Source of the DNA: an uncultured Bacteroidales bacterium
GTDB taxonomy: Bacteria > Bacteroidota > Bacteroidia > Bacteroidales > ML635J-15
Length of the DNA: 64,000 nucleotides
NCBI GenBank assembly: GCA_964418565.1
Contig: CAYQMB010000003.1
Span: 3,892-67,891 of the forward strand
Direction of reading: 5' to 3'
Below are positions 3,255 to 59,806 of this stretch, piece by piece (positions within the stretch are counted from its first letter, which is position 1; each line of letters begins with the position of its first letter). Made by a program: the position numbers and the translations under genes. The notes below the pieces were generated by a model. It searched no databases. It was not told the DNA's origin and was given only the letters and a program-made list of their open reading frames with translations.

Positions 3255-3677
3255 GCATGGCATCAGGTATTCAGGAGTTAAAGACAAGCAGGGTAATTGT
3301 CAGGTATCTCCACCTGTGAAATTGTAATTATTGCATGAAAATCATAAAGTGATTGTAACGTCCTTTTTTGGCACTTACCAGCGATTTAATGGTTCTGTAG
3401 TTCAAAAGTAAATTCATTTTTTGAAATAAAACTTTGCAAAACGGATTAAATGCCAGTATATTATTAATTGATGTAAGTGTTAACAAATGATGCAGATACA
3501 CAACAGGAATTGAAATATCATGCATGTTTTGTGTGCGGATAATCGCGTTAACATCCATTCATTAAAGCAAAGTGTACACTTTAAAAAGACCAAACAGTAA
3601 CCAAGCAGTTAATTTAAGCCATTAAGGAACAAGCCGAAAATCCTTAAGAGAGTAGGCTGAGATTAAATCTGATTATT

Positions 3678-5078
3678 ATGAAAAAAGCGACATTATTAAT
3701 CGTATTGATTTTTGCTATAGCAAAGCTTTATGGACAGGGTTATTATGAAATTGATTTTGTCGGATCGGGTGCTGATCCTGATAACATCCGTGTTGAAAAC
3801 CTGACTCAGGGAACCAGTTTGGATATGGATGGGACTGATGTACTCCACCTTATGCTGGGGGAATCAAGTATTGGTTCAATTACAGCAGATAGAGAAAATC
3901 TGACAATTTTTCCAATCCCTGTGAGGCAAACCTGTAACATTGAATTTATGAATGCAAACCGGGGAAATGTTAGTATCAGGATTTATGGTATTACCGGCAA
4001 GCAAATTCATGATTACAGCAATGTTTTGTCAGATGGGAGCCACCGGTTTAGTGTGACAGGGCTGGCTGCCGGTACGTATGTAATAAGAGTACAAACAGAA
4101 ACGGACTTGTTTACAGGAAAAGTCACTTCTGTTGAACACACTGAATCATCCCCCGCTATTACTCATAAAGCAGGAATAAAATCAAGCAATACAATTAAAA
4201 ATGCAGAAAATCCTGATCCATTGCATCCTGATTTATCCGGCAAAAACACGGGCAAGGCTATTGTCGAAATGGATTATTATGAAGGAGACCAGTTGAAGTT
4301 TACCGGGTATTCAAACGGATTTTTTAATGGATGTATATTTGCTTTGCCAGGCAGTAATAATACATATACATTTCAGTTTATTGAACAACTTGGTCAATGC
4401 AACGGTTTAACCCAAATTACAGACACACGGGATGGGCGCGTTTATAATACAATAGGGATTGGCGATCAATGCTGGATGGCCGAAAGCCTAAAATATTTAC
4501 CAGAGGTTGTAGGACCCGGTACAGGCTCAAATATCACAGCTTATTATTATGTATATGGTTATGACGGCACAAACGTGACAGCGGCCAAAGCAATTGCAAA
4601 TTTTGGTACGTATGGTGTATTGTACAACTGGCCTGCAGCGATGAATGGCATGGAAGGCAGTTCAGCCAACCCCAGCGGTGTGCAGGGTATTTGTCCTTCA
4701 GGCTGGCATTTGCCGAGCGATGCAGAATGGCAGGAGTTGGAAATGGCACTAGGTATGTCACAAGCCGATGCTGACCTTTTGGGCTGGAGAGGCACAAACG
4801 AAGGCAGCAAGTTGGCAGGTAATGCATCTTTATGGGAAGATGGAGGTTTAGAGCAAAATCCGGAATTCGGTAGTAGTGGTTTTGCAGCTCTTCCGGCTGG
4901 ATACCGTTCCGACAACGGTAGTTTCGGCTGCGGTGGTTCCCTTGGTTGGTGGTGGACTGCTACTGATTTTTATTACATTTTAGCCTGGTCCCGGGAGTTG
5001 ACTTACCTTCAAAGCGGTATCTACAGGTTCTATCCCAATATGGAGGTTGGTATACCTGTCCGTTGCGTAAGGGATTAA
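3678..5078 (+). CDS. secreted FISUMP-domain protein with an internal T9SS-CTD-like domain
   Basis: Signal peptide. The C-terminal ~230 aa match the Fibrobacter succinogenes major paralogous domain pattern (TDTRDGRVYNTIGIGDQCWMAESL, GVLYNW, CPSGWHLPSDAEWQELE, GFAALPAGYR, VRCVRD). Residues ~75-152 look like a T9SS sorting domain (LTIFPIPV...VSIRIYGITGKQI...LAAGTYVIRV...TGKVTSV). Confidence 0.7.
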   Translation: MKKATLLIVLIFAIAKLYGQGYYEIDFVGSGADPDNIRVENLTQGTSLDMDGTDVLHLMLGESSIGSITADRENLTIFPIPVRQTCNIEFMNANRGNVSIRIYGITGKQIHDYSNVLSDGSHRFSVTGLAAGTYVIRVQTETDLFTGKVTSVEHTESSPAITHKAGIKSSNTIKNAENPDPLHPDLSGKNTGKAIVEMDYYEGDQLKFTGYSNGFFNGCIFALPGSNNTYTFQFIEQLGQCNGLTQITDTRDGRVYNTIGIGDQCWMAESLKYLPEVVGPGTGSNITAYYYVYGYDGTNVTAAKAIANFGTYGVLYNWPAAMNGMEGSSANPSGVQGICPSGWHLPSDAEWQELEMALGMSQADADLLGWRGTNEGSKLAGNASLWEDGGLEQNPEFGSSGFAALPAGYRSDNGSFGCGGSLGWWWTATDFYYILAWSRELTYLQSGIYRFYPNMEVGIPVRCVRD

Positions 5079-5094: not shown

Positions 5095-5246
5095 CACAAA
5101 AAAAAGCGAGCACCACACTCGGTACTCGCTCTCAATTCTGCCTTGTGGGCCACTAGGGTTCCCGTCCTGTCGGCCGCTTGTTACACCAGTAGTCGTACAG
5201 GCCGCCTGCTGGCCGTGATAAATTCACCTGGACTCCCTGAATAGGA
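5095..5246 (-). repeat. third, decayed copy of tRNA-Met 3' end plus terminator, interrupted by a 66-nt insert (5161-5226) at the T-loop position
   Basis: acaaaaaaaagcgagcaccacactcggtactcgctctcaattctgccttgtgggccactagggtt matches the 6334-6399 copy with few changes. After the insert, cctggactccctga resumes the tRNA variable/anticodon-stem sequence. Confidence 0.6.
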
Positions 5247-5449
5247 TGCATACCCTGGACATAAAACAATCAAATAACATTTTGAAGCAAATTAAACATA
5301 AGTCCATCGTTTACAATGATTACAAAGGTTAATTGTTTGAAACTTTTATTGTTTGTTTTGTTTTAATATGGTATATTGTATGGTATAATGAAAATTTAAC
5401 GATATAAAGATTCACGAACCAAATGCGCTGATTTATTATTCGTTTACAA

Positions 5450-6238
5450 ATGCTTTCTTCATTAAAATCAAATATCGTAACGCTCATTATTATTGTATTT
5501 ACGGCTTTAATAATCATTGGTTTCGGATGTGCACCTTCTCCTATGTATTATGGTGTAGCCAATGGCGGAAGCGAATCTTCCTATATGGATAAACCCGTTT
5601 ATCGAGGCAGTGATCAGATTTCTGAGTATGTATCTGCTAAATTATATCATTCTGTGGATGATTACGCTTATTATGAAGATGAGTCGCTTGGATTTGCTGA
5701 ATTTAAGGCGCACCGTAGTCATACTTATAAGAATGCAAATCTGGCATACGGCGGATTTTTATATGGCGGATATTATAATGTGTCAGCATTAGAAAGGTTT
5801 AAAGGTACAAAGTACATGATAGGAAGTGGAATTGCAGGTGAAGCAAATTTAAATATCCCTTTCAGATATGTTGATTGGCGAATATTAGGTGTTAAAACCA
5901 CAATTCTTTATGAAAACGGCAGCTATGCCAGATTTAGAAGTAATGCGGCAGAATATCGGGGGATTGTTAATATACATCCGTATAATGCTATCTTAAGCTT
6001 TAGTTTCACAACAGAAATTGCTGTCAAATTAAAAAAAATGAGTTTTGGATTATTTATTGCAATGGGTGGAAGTTATAACCCGGATATTAATACATTGTAT
6101 GATCATGATATCGGTATTGCGACTTTCTGTTTGCATGGTACCTATAAACGTTTTACAGGTTTTGCCCAGTTAAACATTGGTGGTTTATTTATGGGCTACG
6201 GACAAACACTTTCAACTGGTGTTAGTTTCCGGTTTTAA
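5450..6238 (+). CDS. hypothetical outer-membrane beta-barrel-like protein
   Basis: N-terminal hydrophobic signal with Cys (GFGC). G/Y-rich alternating pattern and a C-terminal ...GVSFRF ending in Phe, as in OM barrels. AT-rich codon usage. No recognisable family. Confidence 0.45.
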   Translation: MLSSLKSNIVTLIIIVFTALIIIGFGCAPSPMYYGVANGGSESSYMDKPVYRGSDQISEYVSAKLYHSVDDYAYYEDESLGFAEFKAHRSHTYKNANLAYGGFLYGGYYNVSALERFKGTKYMIGSGIAGEANLNIPFRYVDWRILGVKTTILYENGSYARFRSNAAEYRGIVNIHPYNAILSFSFTTEIAVKLKKMSFGLFIAMGGSYNPDINTLYDHDIGIATFCLHGTYKRFTGFAQLNIGGLFMGYGQTLSTGVSFRF

Positions 6239-6306
6239 GTTTAAGCAACGCCGGCGATACAGGGCTTATGCAGGCCCTCCAGGGCTTCCATCCTTTCGGC
6301 GTAAAT

Positions 6307-6428
6307 AATTTTTCCCTGTGATTTCGTGATGTAACAAAAAAGCGAGCACCACACTCGGTACTCGCTCTCAATTCTGCTTTGTGGGCCCACTAGGGCTTGA
6401 ACCTAGGACTCCCTGATTATGAGACAGG
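6307..6428 (-). repeat. second copy: direct repeat of tRNA-Met anticodon stem-loop through 3' end, plus terminator and ~35 nt beyond (att-like)
   Basis: Aligned by eye to 8422-8542. The 83-nt core, from the terminator stem gcgagcacc to ttatgag, shows a single mismatch. The tRNA-derived part is 6382-6428. Confidence 0.85.
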
Positions 6429-6702
6429 AAAGGAAAACCAACCAACGGCAAGAAAACCAGAAAAATAGAAAAACTTAAATTTTGAATTGTAAAGTATTTG
6501 CAGGGTAATTTTGTGGATCTATAATTGCTTATAGGTGTGGCTTTTTGAACTTAATCATTTCAACAAGAATCATTTCTCAGCAACCTTAAAGCTATTAACA
6601 AAATTGGTCTTAGAGCCATCTCTGTAAACATTTTATCCTGTAATTCTGACCAGAATTCATTGAAATATTTTGCTCAAAAATATGGGGTTGCTTAGTGGAT
6701 AC

Positions 6703-7290
6703 TTACCGATCACAGTTTGAGCTCAGGCTAATGGCTTGGCTGACCAATTCCCCATTATGGGAAACTTCTAAAACTATGCCTGGTACAGATTCAAAATTTG
6801 TATGATAAGTGTAAGCGTACAACTTATTTTTCTTAATCTTCCGTGGCTTAAAATACCACACATCATATGAGTTTGTATCTCTCCTCAAAATCATATTTTT
6901 ACATTCAACGCCACAAATCGTTTTTTCCTTTTTTGTATCAACACGGGTAAAGTCATTAGCATACAAGGTATCAGATTCCATAAGTTTTTTCTGGTACGAA
7001 AAACTCTTTTTTATCGCATTTGTATTGGCATCAGAATATTCCTTATAAAACATTGACTTACTGGTTATCTGCTCCTTATCAAAATCAACAACAACAGTAA
7101 AATCATATTCAAGAAGCCTGTATTGATATGTACACATATCATTAGAAAAACAATCCCTGGTTTTATAATTTCCATTATCAGAATAATTCATGTATGTTAC
7201 CTGAATTTGTTTGGATTTTATTACATCATCTGACATAAAACCAAAAGAAAGGAATCCGATAATTACAAATAGAAATAAAATATTTTTCAT
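6703..7290 (-). CDS. hypothetical secreted protein, possibly GLPGLI-like
   Basis: I prefer the internal start MKNILFLFVIIGFLSF (cat at 7288-7290) because it removes the overlap with the upstream gene. The C-terminal WYF...SVPGIVLEV weakly resembles the GLPGLI family motif. Very AT-rich. Confidence 0.45.
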   Translation of the reverse strand: MKNILFLFVIIGFLSFGFMSDDVIKSKQIQVTYMNYSDNGNYKTRDCFSNDMCTYQYRLLEYDFTVVVDFDKEQITSKSMFYKEYSDANTNAIKKSFSYQKKLMESDTLYANDFTRVDTKKEKTICGVECKNMILRRDTNSYDVWYFKPRKIKKNKLYAYTYHTNFESVPGIVLEVSHNGELVSQAISLSSNCDR

Positions 7291-7300
7291 GATTGCAAAT

Positions 7301-8041
7301 TTAAAATTGTGAAACAAACCATGATAGGGATGAATAAACTGATGCTTCGATACATGCATTATTTACCTGCCCAATAAGTGAAGGCTTAAAATTAGGATCG
7401 TTTTCAACAATCTCGTGTAAACAATCTCCATAACCAATTGCATCAACAATAGCAAATTCTACGCCTATATTCCCATATAAGTATTTATTACCAAGCTTTA
7501 AATTCCAAAACTTATAACTTTCAATAAAAATTGACCCTGTAGCTACAATATTATAATAATCTACAATACCTAAACTATCAACATCTACCTTAGTAATGTA
7601 ATCATCAATATCCATCAAGACTCTCTCAATTGAATCACACTCACATATATGCTCGTGTAAAAACATTAAAAAATCAAAACTCTCACTGGAAATATCCCCT
7701 AATTGCAATCTTCGCTCAGCATAGTCATCTATTGAATCTCTCAAAATAAATACCTCATTAAAATGATATACAAAAGGAGTGGAATTGCCCCCTAAAACTA
7801 TATTTATAATCGAATCAAAGGATAAAGTATCATTATTCTCAAGTCCGATACAACTATCATAAGCCACCAGGCATTCATTATGGAAATAACCAGCATTGTA
7901 TGGATTGGTTACATCCAGCCCCGATTTCAATTCTTGTAAAGCAAGTTCATCCTCAACATCATTATTAATCTCTTTTTCACAACTAATAAAAGTAAAGATT
8001 GATAGCGTAAATGCGATTAAAAAAATCAGTTTAGTTTTCAT
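7301..8041 (-). CDS. hypothetical lipoprotein
   Basis: Lipobox signal MKTKLIFLIAFTLSIFTFISC. Acidic, Cys-containing body with no family recognised. Very AT-rich. Confidence 0.55.
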   Translation of the reverse strand: MKTKLIFLIAFTLSIFTFISCEKEINNDVEDELALQELKSGLDVTNPYNAGYFHNECLVAYDSCIGLENNDTLSFDSIINIVLGGNSTPFVYHFNEVFILRDSIDDYAERRLQLGDISSESFDFLMFLHEHICECDSIERVLMDIDDYITKVDVDSLGIVDYYNIVATGSIFIESYKFWNLKLGNKYLYGNIGVEFAIVDAIGYGDCLHEIVENDPNFKPSLIGQVNNACIEASVYSSLSWFVSQF

Positions 8042-8107
8042 AATTAATTAAGTTTAGGTTTAAAAATATTCATAGCAATATTACTATTAAATCCGTTATC
8101 AAAATGC

Positions 8108-8143
8108 GTATTTATACCCGTTTTGAAAAACGGGTATAAATAC
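8108..8143. repeat. perfect 36-bp palindrome (17-bp arms, 2-nt centre)
   Basis: gtatttatacccgtttt ga aaaacgggtataaatac read directly from the sequence. Confidence 0.85.
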
Positions 8144-8446
8144 CTGTGTCCAGTATCTTAATACACCCTCATTTCCCCTCGGCCATCAAACCGGTTCTTT
8201 TGGCCTTAGGTGCTGATGATACCGGATTCTGCTTTTATCACCGCATCCACAAGATGCTCAAAATCTACATCACCTTTGTACTTGCCTTCTTTAGTTACAT
8301 GGAAGATAAAGCCGATCATAGTGCTTTTAGCTGCTGCAATTTCTACAGTCGTTAGATATGTACATTTGTACTGTCCTAATGAAAAAAAAGATTTGACATC
8401 CCCCAGGTTTTTTGCTTGATTAATTTTCCCGTGATTTCGTGACTAA

Positions 8447-8480
8447 ACAAAAAAAGCGAGCACCACACTCGGTACTCGCA
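8447..8480 (-). terminator. intrinsic terminator of tRNA-Met
   Basis: In minus-strand sense: GCGAGTACC GAGTGT GGTGCTCGC (9 bp in this copy, one G-U; the 6343 and 5104 copies add a 10th closing A-T pair) followed by a run of T. Confidence 0.8.
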
Positions 8481-8495
8481 CTCAATTCTGCTTTG

Positions 8496-8569
8496 TGGGC
8501 CCACTAGGGCTTGAACCTAGGACTCCCTGATTATGAGTCAGGTGCTCTAACCAACTGAGCTATGGGCCC
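8496..8569 (-). tRNA. tRNA-Met (anticodon CAU), elongator type; tRNA-Ile2 (lysidine) cannot be excluded
   Basis: Hand-folded 74-nt cloverleaf: GGGCCCA TA GCTC AGTTGGTTA GAGC A CCTGA CTCATAA TCAGG GAGTC CTAGG TTCAAGC CCTAG TGGGCCC A. The 1-72 pair is G-C and the anticodon stem lacks the three G-C pairs of initiators. CCA is not encoded. Confidence 0.9.
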
Positions 8570-11015: not shown

Positions 11016-13067
11016 ATGAAACAATTTTCACTTTTTACGGTTATCACGCTTGTGATAGTAGCCTCCGGCTTCATGATGTCATGTAAATCGGATGCGAATG
11101 AATCTGAAGAAACGAAAGCACTTATGAAAAAAGATCTTGATACCAGCGTATCGCCCAAAGAAGATTTTTACCAGTATGCTACAGGTGGCTGGCAGAAAAA
11201 CAATCCACTTCCTGAAGAAGAAAGCCGTTTTGGATCCTTTGATCAACTGGCTAAAAACACCAGCCGGAAAGTGAAAGATATTATTGTCGGATTGTCAGAA
11301 AAGGACACTGATAAAGGCAGCATGGAATGGAAAATCGGCACCTGGTACAGCGTGGGAATGGACTCAGCTACCATTGAAGCGCAAGGCATCAAACCGATTG
11401 AAAATGAGCTTGAACGCATTGAAAACCTGTCAGCAAAATCGGATGTGATCCGTCAGGCAGCTTACAACAACCGTCACGGAATGAGCAGCTTGTTTTATTT
11501 GTTTGGTGGTGCCGATGCTGATAATGCCGATATGAAAATTGCGCAGATACATCAGGGTGGTCTCGGTTTGCCCGATCGCGATTATTACACCAGCGATGAT
11601 GCACGAAGCCAGGGTATTCGCGATGAATATGTCCGCTACATGACCAACATGATGACGCTGCTTGGTGATGATGAGGCAGAAGCCAAAGATAAAGCTGACA
11701 TGATTATGGCTCTTGAAACCCGCCTGGCAGAAAAGTCCATGACCCGGCTTGAGCAGCGCGATCCGCACGCTACCAATAACAAAATGGAACTGGCTGAGCT
11801 GAATGAACTCGCCGGATCTTTTGATTTTCCTCTGTATTTTGAGGAAGTAGGACTGACTGAACCCGGTGTTATTAATGTCCGCCAGCCCGAGTTTTTCAAA
11901 GAACTGGGTATGGCTGTGGATGAGGTTTCCGTTGATGACTGGAAAACCTATTTCCGCTGGAAACTCATTAACAGTACAGCCAGTTTGCTAAGCTCTGACT
12001 TTGACGGACTGCGCTTCGGCTTTTACGGGAAATACCTGCGTGGTCAGGAAAAGCAAAAACCCCGCTGGCGTCGTATGGTTGCGTCAACCAATGGTGCATT
12101 GGGTGAAGCTGTCGGTAAAAAATTCGTGGAAAAGCACTTTCCGCCCGAAGCCAAAGAACGTATGGTTGAATTGGTTGCCAATCTGCAGGATGCGTTTAAA
12201 CAACGTATGAAAAACTCCACCTGGATGAGCGAAGAAACACAGGAAAAAGCCATTGAAAAGCTGGAAGGTATGCGCGTAAAAATCGGGTATCCCGATAAAT
12301 GGCGTGATTACTCCGGACTTGAGGTTACTGAAGATTCTTACGTACAAAACGTGATGAATTCCAATGTGTTTGATTTTGAGTATATGCTGGATAAAATCGG
12401 AAAACCGGTGGACAAGGAGGAATGGCACATGAATCCTCAGACAGTGAATGCCTATTATTCACCACAAACCAATGAAATTTGCTTTCCTGCCGGCATTCTG
12501 CAGCCACCTTTCTTTTATCTGAATGCAGATGATGCTGTGAATTACGGTGCCATTGGCATGGTTATCGCGCATGAAATGACACATGGTTTTGATGACAAAG
12601 GCCGTCTGTTTAACAAGGAGGGAAACCTGCAGGAATGGTGGACAAAAGAAGATGCCGAGCGTTTTGACAAAGAAGCTCAGGTGTTGGTTGAACGCTACAA
12701 CGAAATTACTGTTCTCGACACCGTACATGCCGATGGTGAGCTTTCACTGGGTGAAAATATCGCCGATTTTGGCGGTCTGAGCATTGCCTACACAGCTTTC
12801 CGCAATAGCCTTGAAGACGGTGAAGAACCTGAAAAAATTGACGGTTTTACTGCAGACCAGCGCTTTTTCCTGGCTTATGCCAAAGTCTGGGCGCAAAACA
12901 TTACCGATAAGGAAATTCTGCGTCGTACAAAAGAAGATGTGCACTCGCTTGGCAAATGGCGTGTTAACGGACAGTTGGTTGGTATGCCGGCTTTCCATGA
13001 GGCCTTTGATGTAAACGAAGGCGATGGAATGTACCTGCCCGAAGAAGAATGGACACATGTCTGGTGA
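11016..13067 (+). CDS. M13 family zinc metallopeptidase (PepO / endothelin-converting-enzyme-like) lipoprotein
   Basis: HEMTHGFD zinc motif, NAYYSPQTNEI, GENIADFGG, and a C-terminal W. I prefer the start at MKQFSLFTVITLVIVASGFMMSC (lipobox). Confidence 0.85.
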   Translation: MKQFSLFTVITLVIVASGFMMSCKSDANESEETKALMKKDLDTSVSPKEDFYQYATGGWQKNNPLPEEESRFGSFDQLAKNTSRKVKDIIVGLSEKDTDKGSMEWKIGTWYSVGMDSATIEAQGIKPIENELERIENLSAKSDVIRQAAYNNRHGMSSLFYLFGGADADNADMKIAQIHQGGLGLPDRDYYTSDDARSQGIRDEYVRYMTNMMTLLGDDEAEAKDKADMIMALETRLAEKSMTRLEQRDPHATNNKMELAELNELAGSFDFPLYFEEVGLTEPGVINVRQPEFFKELGMAVDEVSVDDWKTYFRWKLINSTASLLSSDFDGLRFGFYGKYLRGQEKQKPRWRRMVASTNGALGEAVGKKFVEKHFPPEAKERMVELVANLQDAFKQRMKNSTWMSEETQEKAIEKLEGMRVKIGYPDKWRDYSGLEVTEDSYVQNVMNSNVFDFEYMLDKIGKPVDKEEWHMNPQTVNAYYSPQTNEICFPAGILQPPFFYLNADDAVNYGAIGMVIAHEMTHGFDDKGRLFNKEGNLQEWWTKEDAERFDKEAQVLVERYNEITVLDTVHADGELSLGENIADFGGLSIAYTAFRNSLEDGEEPEKIDGFTADQRFFLAYAKVWAQNITDKEILRRTKEDVHSLGKWRVNGQLVGMPAFHEAFDVNEGDGMYLPEEEWTHVW

Positions 13068-14545: not shown

Positions 14546-14571
14546 CACCTTAAAAAATGTCAAAAAAAAAG

Positions 14572-14643
<72 letters not shown>

Positions 14644-52511: not shown

Positions 52512-52586
52512 GGTCCAGTAGCTCAGTTGGATTAGAGCAACGGCCTTCTAAGCCGTAGGTCCCAGGTTCGAGTCCTGGCTGGATCA
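52512..52586 (+). tRNA. tRNA-Arg (anticodon UCU)
   Basis: Hand-folded 75-nt cloverleaf: GGTCCAG TA GCTC AGTTGGATTA GAGC A ACGGC CTTCTAA GCCGT AGGTC CCAGG TTCGAGT CCTGG CTGGATC A. Confidence 0.9.
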
Positions 52587-52787
52587 CATTCATCGACCGG
52601 ATGTCATTAACGATGTCCGGTTTTTTGTTCCCCTTTTTTCCCAGGCCTTTTGAGCTGTAGGTTGCAGGTGAGTTTATCAGGCTGCAAGACTGAAGTCCTG
52701 GCTGGATCACATTCATCGACCGGATGTCATTAACGATGTCCGGTTTTTTGTTCCCCTTTTTTTCAGGCCTTTTCAGCCTCAAAAACC
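52542..52787 (+). repeat. about 2.2 tandem units of tRNA-Arg 3' half plus terminator
   Basis: Unit 1 is 52542-52643 (genuine tRNA 3' half). Unit 2 is 52644-52765, with the anticodon/variable region diverged and the T-loop replaced by 25 nt. Unit 3 starts at 52766 and is truncated. A 69-nt stretch (52571-52639 vs 52694-52762) is identical. Confidence 0.85.
52596..52627 (+). terminator. tRNA-Arg intrinsic terminator (identical second copy at 52719-52751)
   Basis: ACCGGATGTC attaac GATGTCCGGT 10-bp stem (two G-U) followed by TTTTTT. Confidence 0.7.
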
Positions 52788-56483: not shown

Positions 56484-57131
56484 ACTCATCCTCCGACTCA
56501 AAGTCGGGGGATGAGTAAGGCCTTAGCAGCAGCACCAGTTCCGGGTTTATCGCTAAGCGAGAGCTGCATGCGAGTGAAACATTAGGTGTGACAGGCACAG
56601 ACAGCTTTATCATTCAACCCTTTCAGGGTTGTGGAGCGGGTCGGGGCTGAAACACCACCGGTTTCACCGGAGGTTATTGATATTGAAGCCCTTCGGGCTT
56701 CTTTGCCCAGCAGCCCTGTGTTTTAGCGTCAGTGTCGCTCCAAGCGACTCCGACGCTATATGACGGCCGGTTTCCTCCACCTGATCTGCCGGGCTGACGG
56801 AAAAACCATGGGTTTCAACCCGTGGTTATGACAACAAACCCACCCAGATAGCTTTTGGCGGAAAATTTGCCTTTTCTGCAAATTTTGTGACAAAAGCGGC
56901 ATGTTTAACCAAAAATGGTGCCTGTCCGGCTATCGACAGAACAAAAGCGGCATGTTTGACCAAATCCGGCTATCGACGGAACAAAAGCGGATTCCGGAAC
57001 TGCGTGAGGGATAGAAGCGGTACCCCACAGTCCGCCTCCCGGCGGGCGAGGAGCCTGCCTGCCGGTTCACCAGCCGAGGCTGGCAGGCAGGTACAAGCGG
57101 ATAGCCCGACCCGCCGGAGGTACGGAGGCGG
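56484..57131. other. GC-rich, ORF-free, hairpin-dense non-coding block
   Basis: Hairpins read by eye at 56484-56516, 56615-56631, 56654-56674, 56685-56701, 56725-56757, 56804-56827 and 56862-56886. Degenerate 40-51-nt direct repeats at 56889-57000. Nested three-stem structure at 57032-57131. Confidence 0.6.
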
Positions 57132-59202: not shown

Positions 59203-59806
59203 CAGAAGAACAGTATAAGGAGTTTGCAAATTCCCGGTTGCCACTTATTTACAAGTTGCAACATATTCATATTTCCGCAATGTAATAACGCAAGACCTTG
59301 ACAGGTGATTTTATTCAAACAGGTGGTTTCATGTTGAAAAAATGATGTTTTATGGGGATGTGGGCGGTCTGCTTTTTTCATCCAGAGAATCAAGAAAGTC
59401 CGGAACGTTCGTAAACGTTAAAAAATCCGCCAGCCCCTGCCCGCCGATATTATTTTAAATGGTTGGCAGGCTGGCACTTGCCACCCACCGCAGGGAGCAG
59501 CGGGGCAAATTCTGGCAGAATCCGGAAATACAACCAAACCAGAATCAAAGTTTCGTAAATACTTGTTGTTGTTTGTCGTTCATTTGTGAATTACGAAACG
59601 GATATAGTAACAACAAAGCTTGTGTTAGTGTGCTATTACGTGTGCTTTATATGCCGGATGTAAGAGTCAGATTGACTGTGATTTAGTTTAGAATTGTTAT
59701 AAATTCACAACTGCCATCGATTTTGTAATTTTTAAAATTATATTTGTTTCCAATAGACAGGTAAAACTTTTAAAACTTAATTAAACTTAACTTAATCATT
59801 TATTCT

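Follow-up and report, generated by a model that had tools for sequence, protein, structure and literature searches.

The stretch of DNA analysed here (the window; 64,000 nucleotides (nt) of contig CAYQMB010000003.1, assembly GCA_964418565.1, from an uncultured Bacteroidales bacterium) contains an intact tRNA-Met(CAT) gene and an intact tRNA-Arg(TCT) gene, each followed by partial copies of itself (pseudo-tRNAs), and three of these pseudo-tRNAs carry, at the place of the T-loop, a module of about 27 nt that the two tRNAs have in common (Table 1). tRNA genes are the commonest landing sites of mobile DNA, and the tRNA fragments left behind are usually regarded as inert. In the window, such scars of two tRNAs have in common a conserved sequence that is not tRNA and that persists between deeply diverged lineages where its surroundings have changed.

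Downstream of tRNA-Met, whose place after an EpsG-like gene is kept in relatives, lie two further copies of the 3' part of the gene, B and C (the latter at 5146-5262), each with the same terminator (repeat family D1). Copy B has an intact T-loop and lacks the module, and the module is present in copy C and in the neighbouring pseudo-tRNA-Met B' (6285-6311, minus strand, AAATTATTTACGCCGAAAGGATGGAAG; the third copy in the window), which stand in direct orientation on either side of a gene for a 262-amino-acid (aa) protein. An AT-rich island of about 2 kb (island 1) is bounded by a direct repeat of about 150 nt (A/B; families D1 and D4) that ends inside the module position of B', stopping at ...GGGAAAA(A)TTA within the module-equivalent position. 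This arrangement is shared by all recovered strain contigs of the window species. At the Arg locus, an 80-nt repeat (the tRNA from T-loop to 3' end, its terminator and 12 more bases) recurs 123 bp downstream, beginning at AGTCCTGG directly 3' of the module, and the 42 nt between the two repeats consist of a diverged stretch of anticodon stem, variable loop and 5' strand of the T-stem followed by the insert. The resulting 123-bp unit can be delimited as 52571-52693 or, equivalently, as 52651-52773.

Table 1. Features of the tRNA-Met and tRNA-Arg loci in the window
Feature	Position	Strand	Basis
Intact tRNA-Met(CAT), head of the array	8496-8569	-	ARAGORN; Rfam tRNA, 73.2 bits
Terminator T(A), native type, after tRNA-Met	8450-8495	-	Hairpin 8456-8479 and T-run
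Remnant of pseudo-tRNA 5' part, CACGAAATCACGGGAAAATTA; the long A/B direct repeat ends here	8421-8446	-	Sequence; repeat family D4
Island 1, ~2 kb, ~30% GC, two lipoprotein-like open reading frames (ORFs)	6429-8420	-	Composition; ORFs
Lipoprotein-like ORFs of island 1, overlapping, 246 and 218 aa	7301-8041; 6703-7359	-	ORF map
Copy B, tRNA-Met 3' half, anticodon stem to 3' end	6382-6428	-	98% identity to tRNA
Terminator T(B), native type	6336-6381	-	Repeat and terminator scans
Copy B', module-bearing pseudo-tRNA-Met, CACGAAATCACAGGGAA AAATTATTTACGCCGAAAGGATGGAAG GCCCTGGAGGGCC	6273-6328	-	Sequence; alignment A2
Gene for 262-aa protein, lipoprotein- or outer-membrane-protein-like	5450-6238	+	ORF map
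Copy C, 5' tRNA-like part: decayed anticodon arm, variable loop, T-stem 5' strand	5227-5262	-	Sequence; alignment A2
Copy C module, TGAATTTATCA...GACAGGACGGGAA	5159-5226 (5161-5226 in the original prediction)	-	Sequence; alignment; shuffles
Copy C, T-stem 3' strand and decayed acceptor strand, CCCTAGTGGCCCA	5146-5158	-	Sequence
Terminator T(C), native type	5095-5145	-	14-bp hairpin 5102-5133 and T-run; repeat family D1
Intact tRNA-Arg(TCT)	52512-52587	+	ARAGORN; Rfam
Direct repeat 1: tRNA-Arg T-loop to 3' end, terminator, CCCAGGCCTTT	52571-52650	+	Repeat family D2; hairpin 52595-52622
Pseudo-tRNA-Arg 5' part, GAGCTGTAGGTTGCAGG	52651-52668	+	14/18 match to tRNA
Arg module, TGAGTTTATCAGGCTGCAAGACTGA	52669-52693	+	Alignment; shuffles; hidden Markov model (HMM), E=2.6e-4
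Direct repeat 2: second tRNA-Arg 3' end and terminator	52694-52773	+	Hairpin 52718-52745

The original prediction, made from the sequence alone, held that the Met copy C and the Arg remnant carry inserts that open with the same motif, and on re-reading the sequence we found the coordinates and sequences of both inserts as it had described. The motif reads CAGGTGAATTTATCA in copy C (5216-5230, minus strand) and CAGGTGAGTTTATCA in the Arg copy (52665-52679, plus strand). In tRNA sense, copy C runs cctattcagggagtccagg-(66 nt)-ccctagtggccca against the reference tRNA-Met(CAT), the insert (5161-5226) standing in the remnant as ...cctattcagggagtccagg TGAATTTATCACGGCC...GACAGGACGGG aaccctagtggccca, and the Arg copy runs gagctgtaggttgcagg-(25 nt)-agtcctggctggatca against tRNA-Arg(TCT); both inserts begin directly 3' of T54, the first base of the T-loop, so that the claim of one structural position in two unrelated tRNA remnants stands. 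The resemblance also exceeds chance: exact matches to CAGGTGARTTTATCA occur in the window only at these two sites, up to two mismatches give four matches against 0.32 expected (a count reached in 0 of 100 shuffles), and 10 of 11 matches at a fixed position in the insert proper would arise by chance at about 8e-6 if base frequencies are taken as equal. The 15-mer had been proposed as the terminus of an element; it does mark the left edge of a conserved unit, although its CAGG belongs to the T-stem and not to the insert.

The similarity between copy C and the Arg copy extends over the whole insert, including the 3' ends (...GACAGGACGGGAA and ...GCAAGACTGAAG). An end-to-end alignment of nine pseudo-copies that covers both isotypes and several lineages (alignment A2) shows a common unit of about 27 nt, TGAAYYTRTCM-GGCYGNCAGGAYGGAAG, flanked by the two strands of the T-stem; it stands in for the 7-nt T-loop and contains an imperfect inverted repeat (YYTRTC ... 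GNCAGG). The window Arg insert aligns end to end with Met-type copies from other genomes (shuffle p<0.0005 against the first Met copy of the contig L224), copy C resembles both the window Arg insert (p=0.011) and that of a sister species, L228 (p=0.0085), and the B' module is recovered by the module HMM (E=6.9e-5) and by shuffle tests against the modules of L224 and L225 (p=0.0-0.006). The 66-nt insert of copy C is this same module expanded by 41 nt in its interior, a stretch containing three CGGCC-N-CAGG-like repeats of the module centre, and the HMM matches only the two ends of the insert (5228-5206 and 5176-5156). On these alignments and shuffles, the Met and Arg inserts are homologous copies of one module and not a coincidence, and the fallback of the original prediction, a coincidental 15-mer, is wrong given that the homology crosses isotypes and lineages. 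The distinct module sequences number only five to six, all from metagenome-assembled genomes (MAGs) or metagenome contigs, a point against the cassette reading given below.

The module is, as far as comparison can tell, not derived from either tRNA, because shuffle tests of modules against tRNA 3' regions or full tRNAs gave no significant similarity (all p>0.06), the lowest value stemming from a 9-mer, CTGGCTGGA, in L228. We also considered and rejected two other origins, namely a decayed second T-loop-to-3' end or anticodon arm of a tRNA (shuffles p>0.1, again with the exception of that 9-mer in L228) and an intron boundary of splice-site-like type (CAG/GTGAGT), the removal of which would leave no T-loop in a host copy that is in any case truncated.

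Related loci were located through the flanking EpsG-like protein (54-60% identical in the nearest relatives), and the module recurs in pseudo-tRNA-Met copies from two further lineages of Bacteroidales, as well as in the pseudo-tRNA-Arg that the sister species carries, in every case just downstream of the intact cognate tRNA. An HMM search with all filters off, covering about 250 kb (the window and twelve related loci), matched pseudo-tRNA T-loop positions only. The module has no dispersed copies, terminal inverted repeats or target-site duplications, unlike a dispersed repeat of the miniature inverted-repeat transposable element (MITE) or repetitive extragenic palindromic (REP) type. Beyond these loci, strict and loose motif and junction patterns in IMG/VR viral contigs returned nothing, or coding and chance matches (for example, to the peptide GEFI). 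The pattern CAGGTGARTTTATCAN{0,1}GGC had 39 matches in 185,579 species genomes (one genome each), about the chance expectation, none of them tRNA-adjacent in the 21 loci inspected and none from the present lineage. A motif scan of metagenome contigs gave 38 chance matches and one contig of the same strain, and BLAST of the L224 array against phage and plasmid records found no similar DNA.

These distributions bear on two explanations. The first, that of the original prediction, is that large elements crossed over in the T-loop of displaced tRNA halves and were later deleted internally, so that each insert represents fused left and right ends. The insert does sit at the same position and in the same orientation in both tRNAs, both of its ends are conserved (deletion could have gone less far in the 66-nt copy), and crossover in the T-loop is a known sublocation (PMC3146451; PMC1762012). 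However, independent deletions would not leave one ~27-nt unit across isotypes and lineages, whereas exactly such a unit is seen in six or more copies, which span two isotypes and a minimum of three lineages, and the 41 extra nt of the Met copy resemble internal repeats of the CGGCC-N-CAGG core of the module. The original prediction had itself named the lack, in any related genome, of a longer element carrying the motif as what would count against it; no full-length element turned up in the three collections scanned (viral, 185,579 species genomes and metagenomes), and on its own terms the large-element version fails. We regard it as quite unlikely. The second explanation is a discrete mini-insertion, in which the module of about 24-27 nt is itself mobile or templated, is placed after T54, and is tolerated only in non-essential displaced tRNA halves. 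Cognate tRNA sequence on both sides of the module in two isotypes, and a constant size, insertion point and orientation, are what such an insertion would produce, but it would have to do so with no terminal inverted repeats, target-site duplication or dispersed copies; the exact motif occurs in the species genomes only by chance, and copy B, likewise a displaced half, has kept its T-loop whole. Such an insertion seems to us very unlikely. We know of no mechanism that moves units of 24-27 nt.

Comparison with the relatives shows the anatomy of the loci. In L221, L222, L223 and L225, tRNA-Met is directly followed by a new terminator, a 22-nt spacer, a pseudo-copy (CATAATCAGGGAGTCCCAGG TGAACCTGTCCGGCCGGCTGTATGGAA GCCCTGATGGGCAAAC; the positional counterpart of copy B' in L221 and L225) and a native-like terminator; that is, in L225 and L221 a novel terminator follows the real tRNA, and the native terminator (homologous to that of L226, p<0.0005) follows the module-bearing copy. 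L224 has three pseudo-copies (two with TGAACCTGTCCGGCTGACAGGACGGAA and one with TGCATTTGTACGGTCGCCCGGATGGGA), and its new terminators, like those of L225, are unrelated to the native one. By comparison, L226 and L300 have tRNA-Met with a native-type flank and no pseudo-copy, and terminator T(A) of the window is homologous to the post-tRNA-Met terminator of this cassette-free L226 (p<0.0005). The sister species L228 (helicase 91% identical) has TCTAAGCCGTAGGTTTCAGG TGAGTTTATC... at tRNA-Arg, followed by decayed 3'-end copies, and its pseudo-tRNA-Arg retains the anticodon loop CTTCTAA. Measured from the tRNA 3' end through terminator, spacer and pseudo 5' part to the end of the module, the unit is 117 nt long in L225, 117 nt in L224 (two in tandem) and 123 nt at the Arg locus of the window.

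Breakpoints fall within the T-arm. L224 (a contig from a Mono Lake sediment metagenome) and L225 (a related MAG) are 100% identical over 9,767 nt, and this identity splits exactly after ...GGTTCAAGCCC in the 3' strand of the T-stem; from inside the tRNA-Met T-arm onward, the two differ completely (L224 11342-11640 and L225 9704-9900). The tRNA-Met of L224 stops at model position 64, so that its 3' acceptor strand is missing, and this contig has two copies of a 78-nt block. The identity of L225 to L221 is about 88% before the tRNA and 98-100% from the tRNA onward. The 262-aa protein is 80% identical to its L221 ortholog (11592-12377), compared with 58% for the neighbouring EpsG-like protein, a contrast that suggests DNA exchange between lineages on the far side of the tRNA, or unusually strong constraint. 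L226 and L300 have only fragments of the 262-aa gene left beside tRNA-Met. The spacers of otherwise unrelated Met cassettes (L225 9795-9815 and L224 11515-11535) share ATTTCNCCCA...ATAATCAGGGA (p=0.004), perhaps another conserved site of these units besides the module.

The module remains recognizable between lineages in which the flanking protein is only 57-58% identical and the terminators and spacers are unrelated. Given that it outlasts its surroundings across such diverged lineages, the module would appear to be either under selection (now or recently) or repeatedly re-imported; tRNA-like flanks can be renewed by conversion from the adjacent gene, and the module cannot.

The Arg unit is polymorphic within the species. 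The 123-bp unit is present in the window and in the strain contigs L009 and L013, and absent from L010, L011 and L012 (same species, 99-100% identity), in which a plain tRNA-Arg is followed by one terminator; looking up the upstream gene in strain contigs returned only this known arrangement and no longer element. Such variation, and the tandem units, might be nothing special: repeat recombination accounts for both, and a history in which the 3' region of the tRNA was duplicated locally in tandem and the copies then decayed and underwent gene conversion, with the Met-Arg resemblance put down to shared tRNA ancestry and chance, would also fit the part of the L228 Arg copy that is a decayed tRNA-Arg 3' end (9/9 match to CTGGCTGGA, p~0.01-0.07). 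Against this, the modules resemble one another across isotypes and lineages yet significantly resemble no part of either tRNA, strains that are 99.9% identical cannot have built a diverged pseudo 5' part and a 24-nt replacement in situ, and the new terminators of L224 and L225 are not of the native type. The shuffle comparisons with tRNAs already disfavour this account, which we consider highly improbable.

The anatomy was then set against that of integration sites. Like attachment (att) junctions, the loci have an intact tRNA, and the DNA inserted there is delimited by a direct repeat of the tRNA 3' segment (families D1 and D2); they also have empty counterparts (L010, L011 and L012 for Arg; L226 and L300 for Met), although repeat-mediated deletion would look alike. 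As expected of incoming DNA that restores the tRNA 3' end, the displaced end keeps the native flank in L225 and L221. No recombinase lies within or beside the units. Both putative junctions are kept and recombination genes are absent, as in cis-mobilizable elements (CIMEs), the role of these junctions being presumed.

Our preferred reading, which we hold tentatively and to which we would give almost an even chance, is that the module-bearing pseudo-tRNAs are att-type recombination junctions of lineage-restricted small cassettes in the T-arm region of tRNA-Met and tRNA-Arg. The crossover would lie at, or just 3' of, the T-loop, and the incoming DNA would bring a replacement tRNA 3' end and its own terminator, such that the tRNA remains functional. 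The other end of the cassette would consist of a tRNA-like 5' stretch and then the ~27-nt module, abutting the displaced tRNA 3' end. The module would be element-derived sequence adjoining the crossover, probably a recombinase binding site or a core-proximal or arm site, and such a role could account for a module common to the Met and Arg versions despite their differing tRNA flanks. The remains seen today would be cargo-free units of 117-123 nt and islands of 1-2 kb with lipoprotein genes, none with a recombinase. Because no unit carries a recombinase, the cassettes may be either dead remnants or units moved in trans, as CIMEs are. The integrative-element end of the original prediction thus survives in part: 3'-end repeats with terminators, an empty Arg site and strain breakpoints in the T-arm fit recombination at a tRNA, whereas a recombinase and a longer element are missing.

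Several observations weigh against junctions made by a site-specific recombinase with the module as its presumed site. No such recombinase is found among the 55 ORFs of the window (the rest of which is made up of housekeeping genes, among them those for DnaK, ParAB, GuaA, MutY, RNase G, DsbD and a DEAD-box helicase), in Pfam scans of the local ORFs, or in the precomputed Pfam annotation of the relatives' loci. Promoter motifs, type IX secretion system domains and the names of homologues all point to Bacteroidales as the source of the window. The viral, species-genome and metagenome scans found neither a longer element carrying the motif nor an autonomous relative able to act in trans. With a plain right attachment junction (attR), no sequence resembling the cognate tRNA would be expected upstream of the module, and this stretch must be assumed to belong to the att site that the cassette itself brings. 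The Arg presence and absence could come from ordinary homologous recombination between the 80-nt repeats, and the L224 tandem units could arise in the same way between repeats, such that neither is proof of site-specific mobility; L224, an old metagenome contig, may also be an assembly chimera rather than a true structural variant.

A different possibility is that the host has selected a tRNA-like element, either an RNA with a remodelled T-arm (processed, for example, out of tRNA read-through transcripts or out of the 5' or 3' regions of adjacent genes) or a regulatory DNA site bound by a protein. The module is conserved across deep divergence when spacers and terminators are not, it always lies in tRNA orientation and usually has a terminator after it, and the pseudo-copy and an intact 261/262-aa gene occur together in three lineages, each of them being missing or degraded in L226 and L300. 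Within the module, a candidate hairpin of 6 bp shows pairing in 77% of cells, compared with 27-57% in slid controls; however, the pairing and covariation values were reached in 23-40 of 500 shuffles (two registers, few sequences), and folding energies are no better than those of shuffles (z -0.12 to +0.38). No Rfam family, tRNA-like RNAs and group I introns included, covers the inserts at gathering or E<=10 thresholds. The 5' parts are truncated differently in each copy and the acceptor strands are decayed, the upstream terminator ends only about 20 nt before the copy, no Bacteroidetes-type TAnnTTTG promoter was seen there by reading, and the Arg copy is dispensable in some strains. We consider a host-selected element rather unlikely. 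Somewhat broader is the idea that the ~120-nt units are living minimal cassettes, shuttled by an unlinked Bacteroidales recombinase that recognises the module, or a selected tRNA-like RNA, and in either case a functional element of an undescribed kind. As a living cassette, the unit (tRNA 3' end, terminator, 5' part of the pseudo-tRNA, and module) would comprise little beyond its own attachment site, and cargo genes could occasionally be shuttled along with it. This idea is unlikely, in our view.

Arrays of tRNA fragments and conserved junction motifs are already known. A close parallel to the cassette junctions that we favour is the ssrA locus of Dehalococcoides, where islands lie in tandem, a 20-bp stretch from the 3' end of the gene recurs as a direct repeat at their boundaries, and a conserved 15-bp motif (TTCAGRSMGMRKCCA), which cannot be aligned with the gene, lies directly upstream of each ssrA repeat, with crossover in the T-loop; some of these islands have no integration genes and were interpreted as cis-mobilizable, and many have a serine-recombinase module (McMurdie et al. 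2011, PMC3146451). The two systems share a tandem array downstream of a tRNA-like gene, 3'-end repeats and a conserved non-gene motif upstream of the repeats. They differ in that no recombinase is found here, units are as small as 117-123 nt, cognate tRNA-like sequence lies upstream of the motif, and one motif serves two tRNA genes. In the tycheposons of Prochlorococcus, partial-tRNA arrays stem from successive integrations (bioRxiv 10.1101/2020.12.28.424599), and tRNA gene fragments have been reviewed (PMC9897764). There too an intact tRNA is followed by partial copies between cargo segments, with older elements distal and integrase-less remnants among them; those fragments are, however, plain tRNA 3' copies, like copy B, and the descriptions consulted mention no conserved non-tRNA module in place of the T-loop.

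The CIME concept covers att-flanked remnants of integrative elements that have no recombination genes (as cited in PMC3146451). The units described here resemble CIMEs in the absence of an integrase, the retention of both junctions, possible mobilization in trans and strain variation, but are far smaller, have no known autonomous partner, and are only presumed to be mobilized. CIMEs are also known from work on Streptococcus thermophilus. Within the same host order, NBU elements use tRNA 3' ends as targets. IntDOT, the CTnDOT integrase, tolerates heterology in the crossover region (PMC2034462), a tolerance that could fit a T-loop differing between partner sites and that we treat as a lead only. 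The conserved TTTGCNNNNN of CTnDOT sites is nonetheless absent from the module, no IntDOT-like gene lies nearby, and the idea of a CTnDOT-type TTTGC core was rejected for want of that sequence in the module. In the literature, we found no description of a ~27-nt module that replaces the T-loop in pseudo-copies of two tRNAs, in units of ~120 nt with no linked recombinase. If the module is a recombinase site, it would provide a sequence handle for the recombinase and shed light on the way in which tRNA flanks of uncultured Bacteroidales are remodelled by cassettes with little cargo; if it is merely a remnant, these loci would be a well-documented case of an ordinary process. In practical terms, the module points to a type of pseudo-tRNA that programs for predicting genes and islands will treat wrongly.

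As for the neighbouring genes, the island 1 ORFs have no Pfam, PHROG or NCBIfam assignment and include no recombinase, and the 262-aa ORF has no useful match in Pfam, PHROGs or NCBIfam. The second ORF of island 1 encodes 218 aa (overlapping the first) or 195 aa (non-overlapping) among strain contigs, an indel polymorphism, and a perfect 16-bp hairpin (GTATTTATACCCGTTTTTCAAAACGGGTATAAATAC, 8108-8143, minus strand) lies in the low-GC island upstream of the 246-aa ORF. Elsewhere in the window, ARAGORN called a 91-nt tRNA-Gly(gcc) at 59458-59548 (minus strand) that we considered as a third case; it has no Rfam tRNA match and no resemblance to the real tRNA-Gly at 14571-14643, and we rejected it as a probable false positive. 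At 56925-56990 (plus strand; local GC ~52%), the 26-nt sequence TCCGGCTATCGACRGAACAAAAGCGG is present as a direct repeat of two copies 40 nt apart. Finally, the Rfam DUF805b RNA motif (RF02914, 41.7 bits, above the gathering score; 3624-3658, plus strand) sits 20 nt upstream of a 466-aa gene (3678-5078) with Fib_succ_major and type IX secretion system sorting (Por_Secre_tail) domains.

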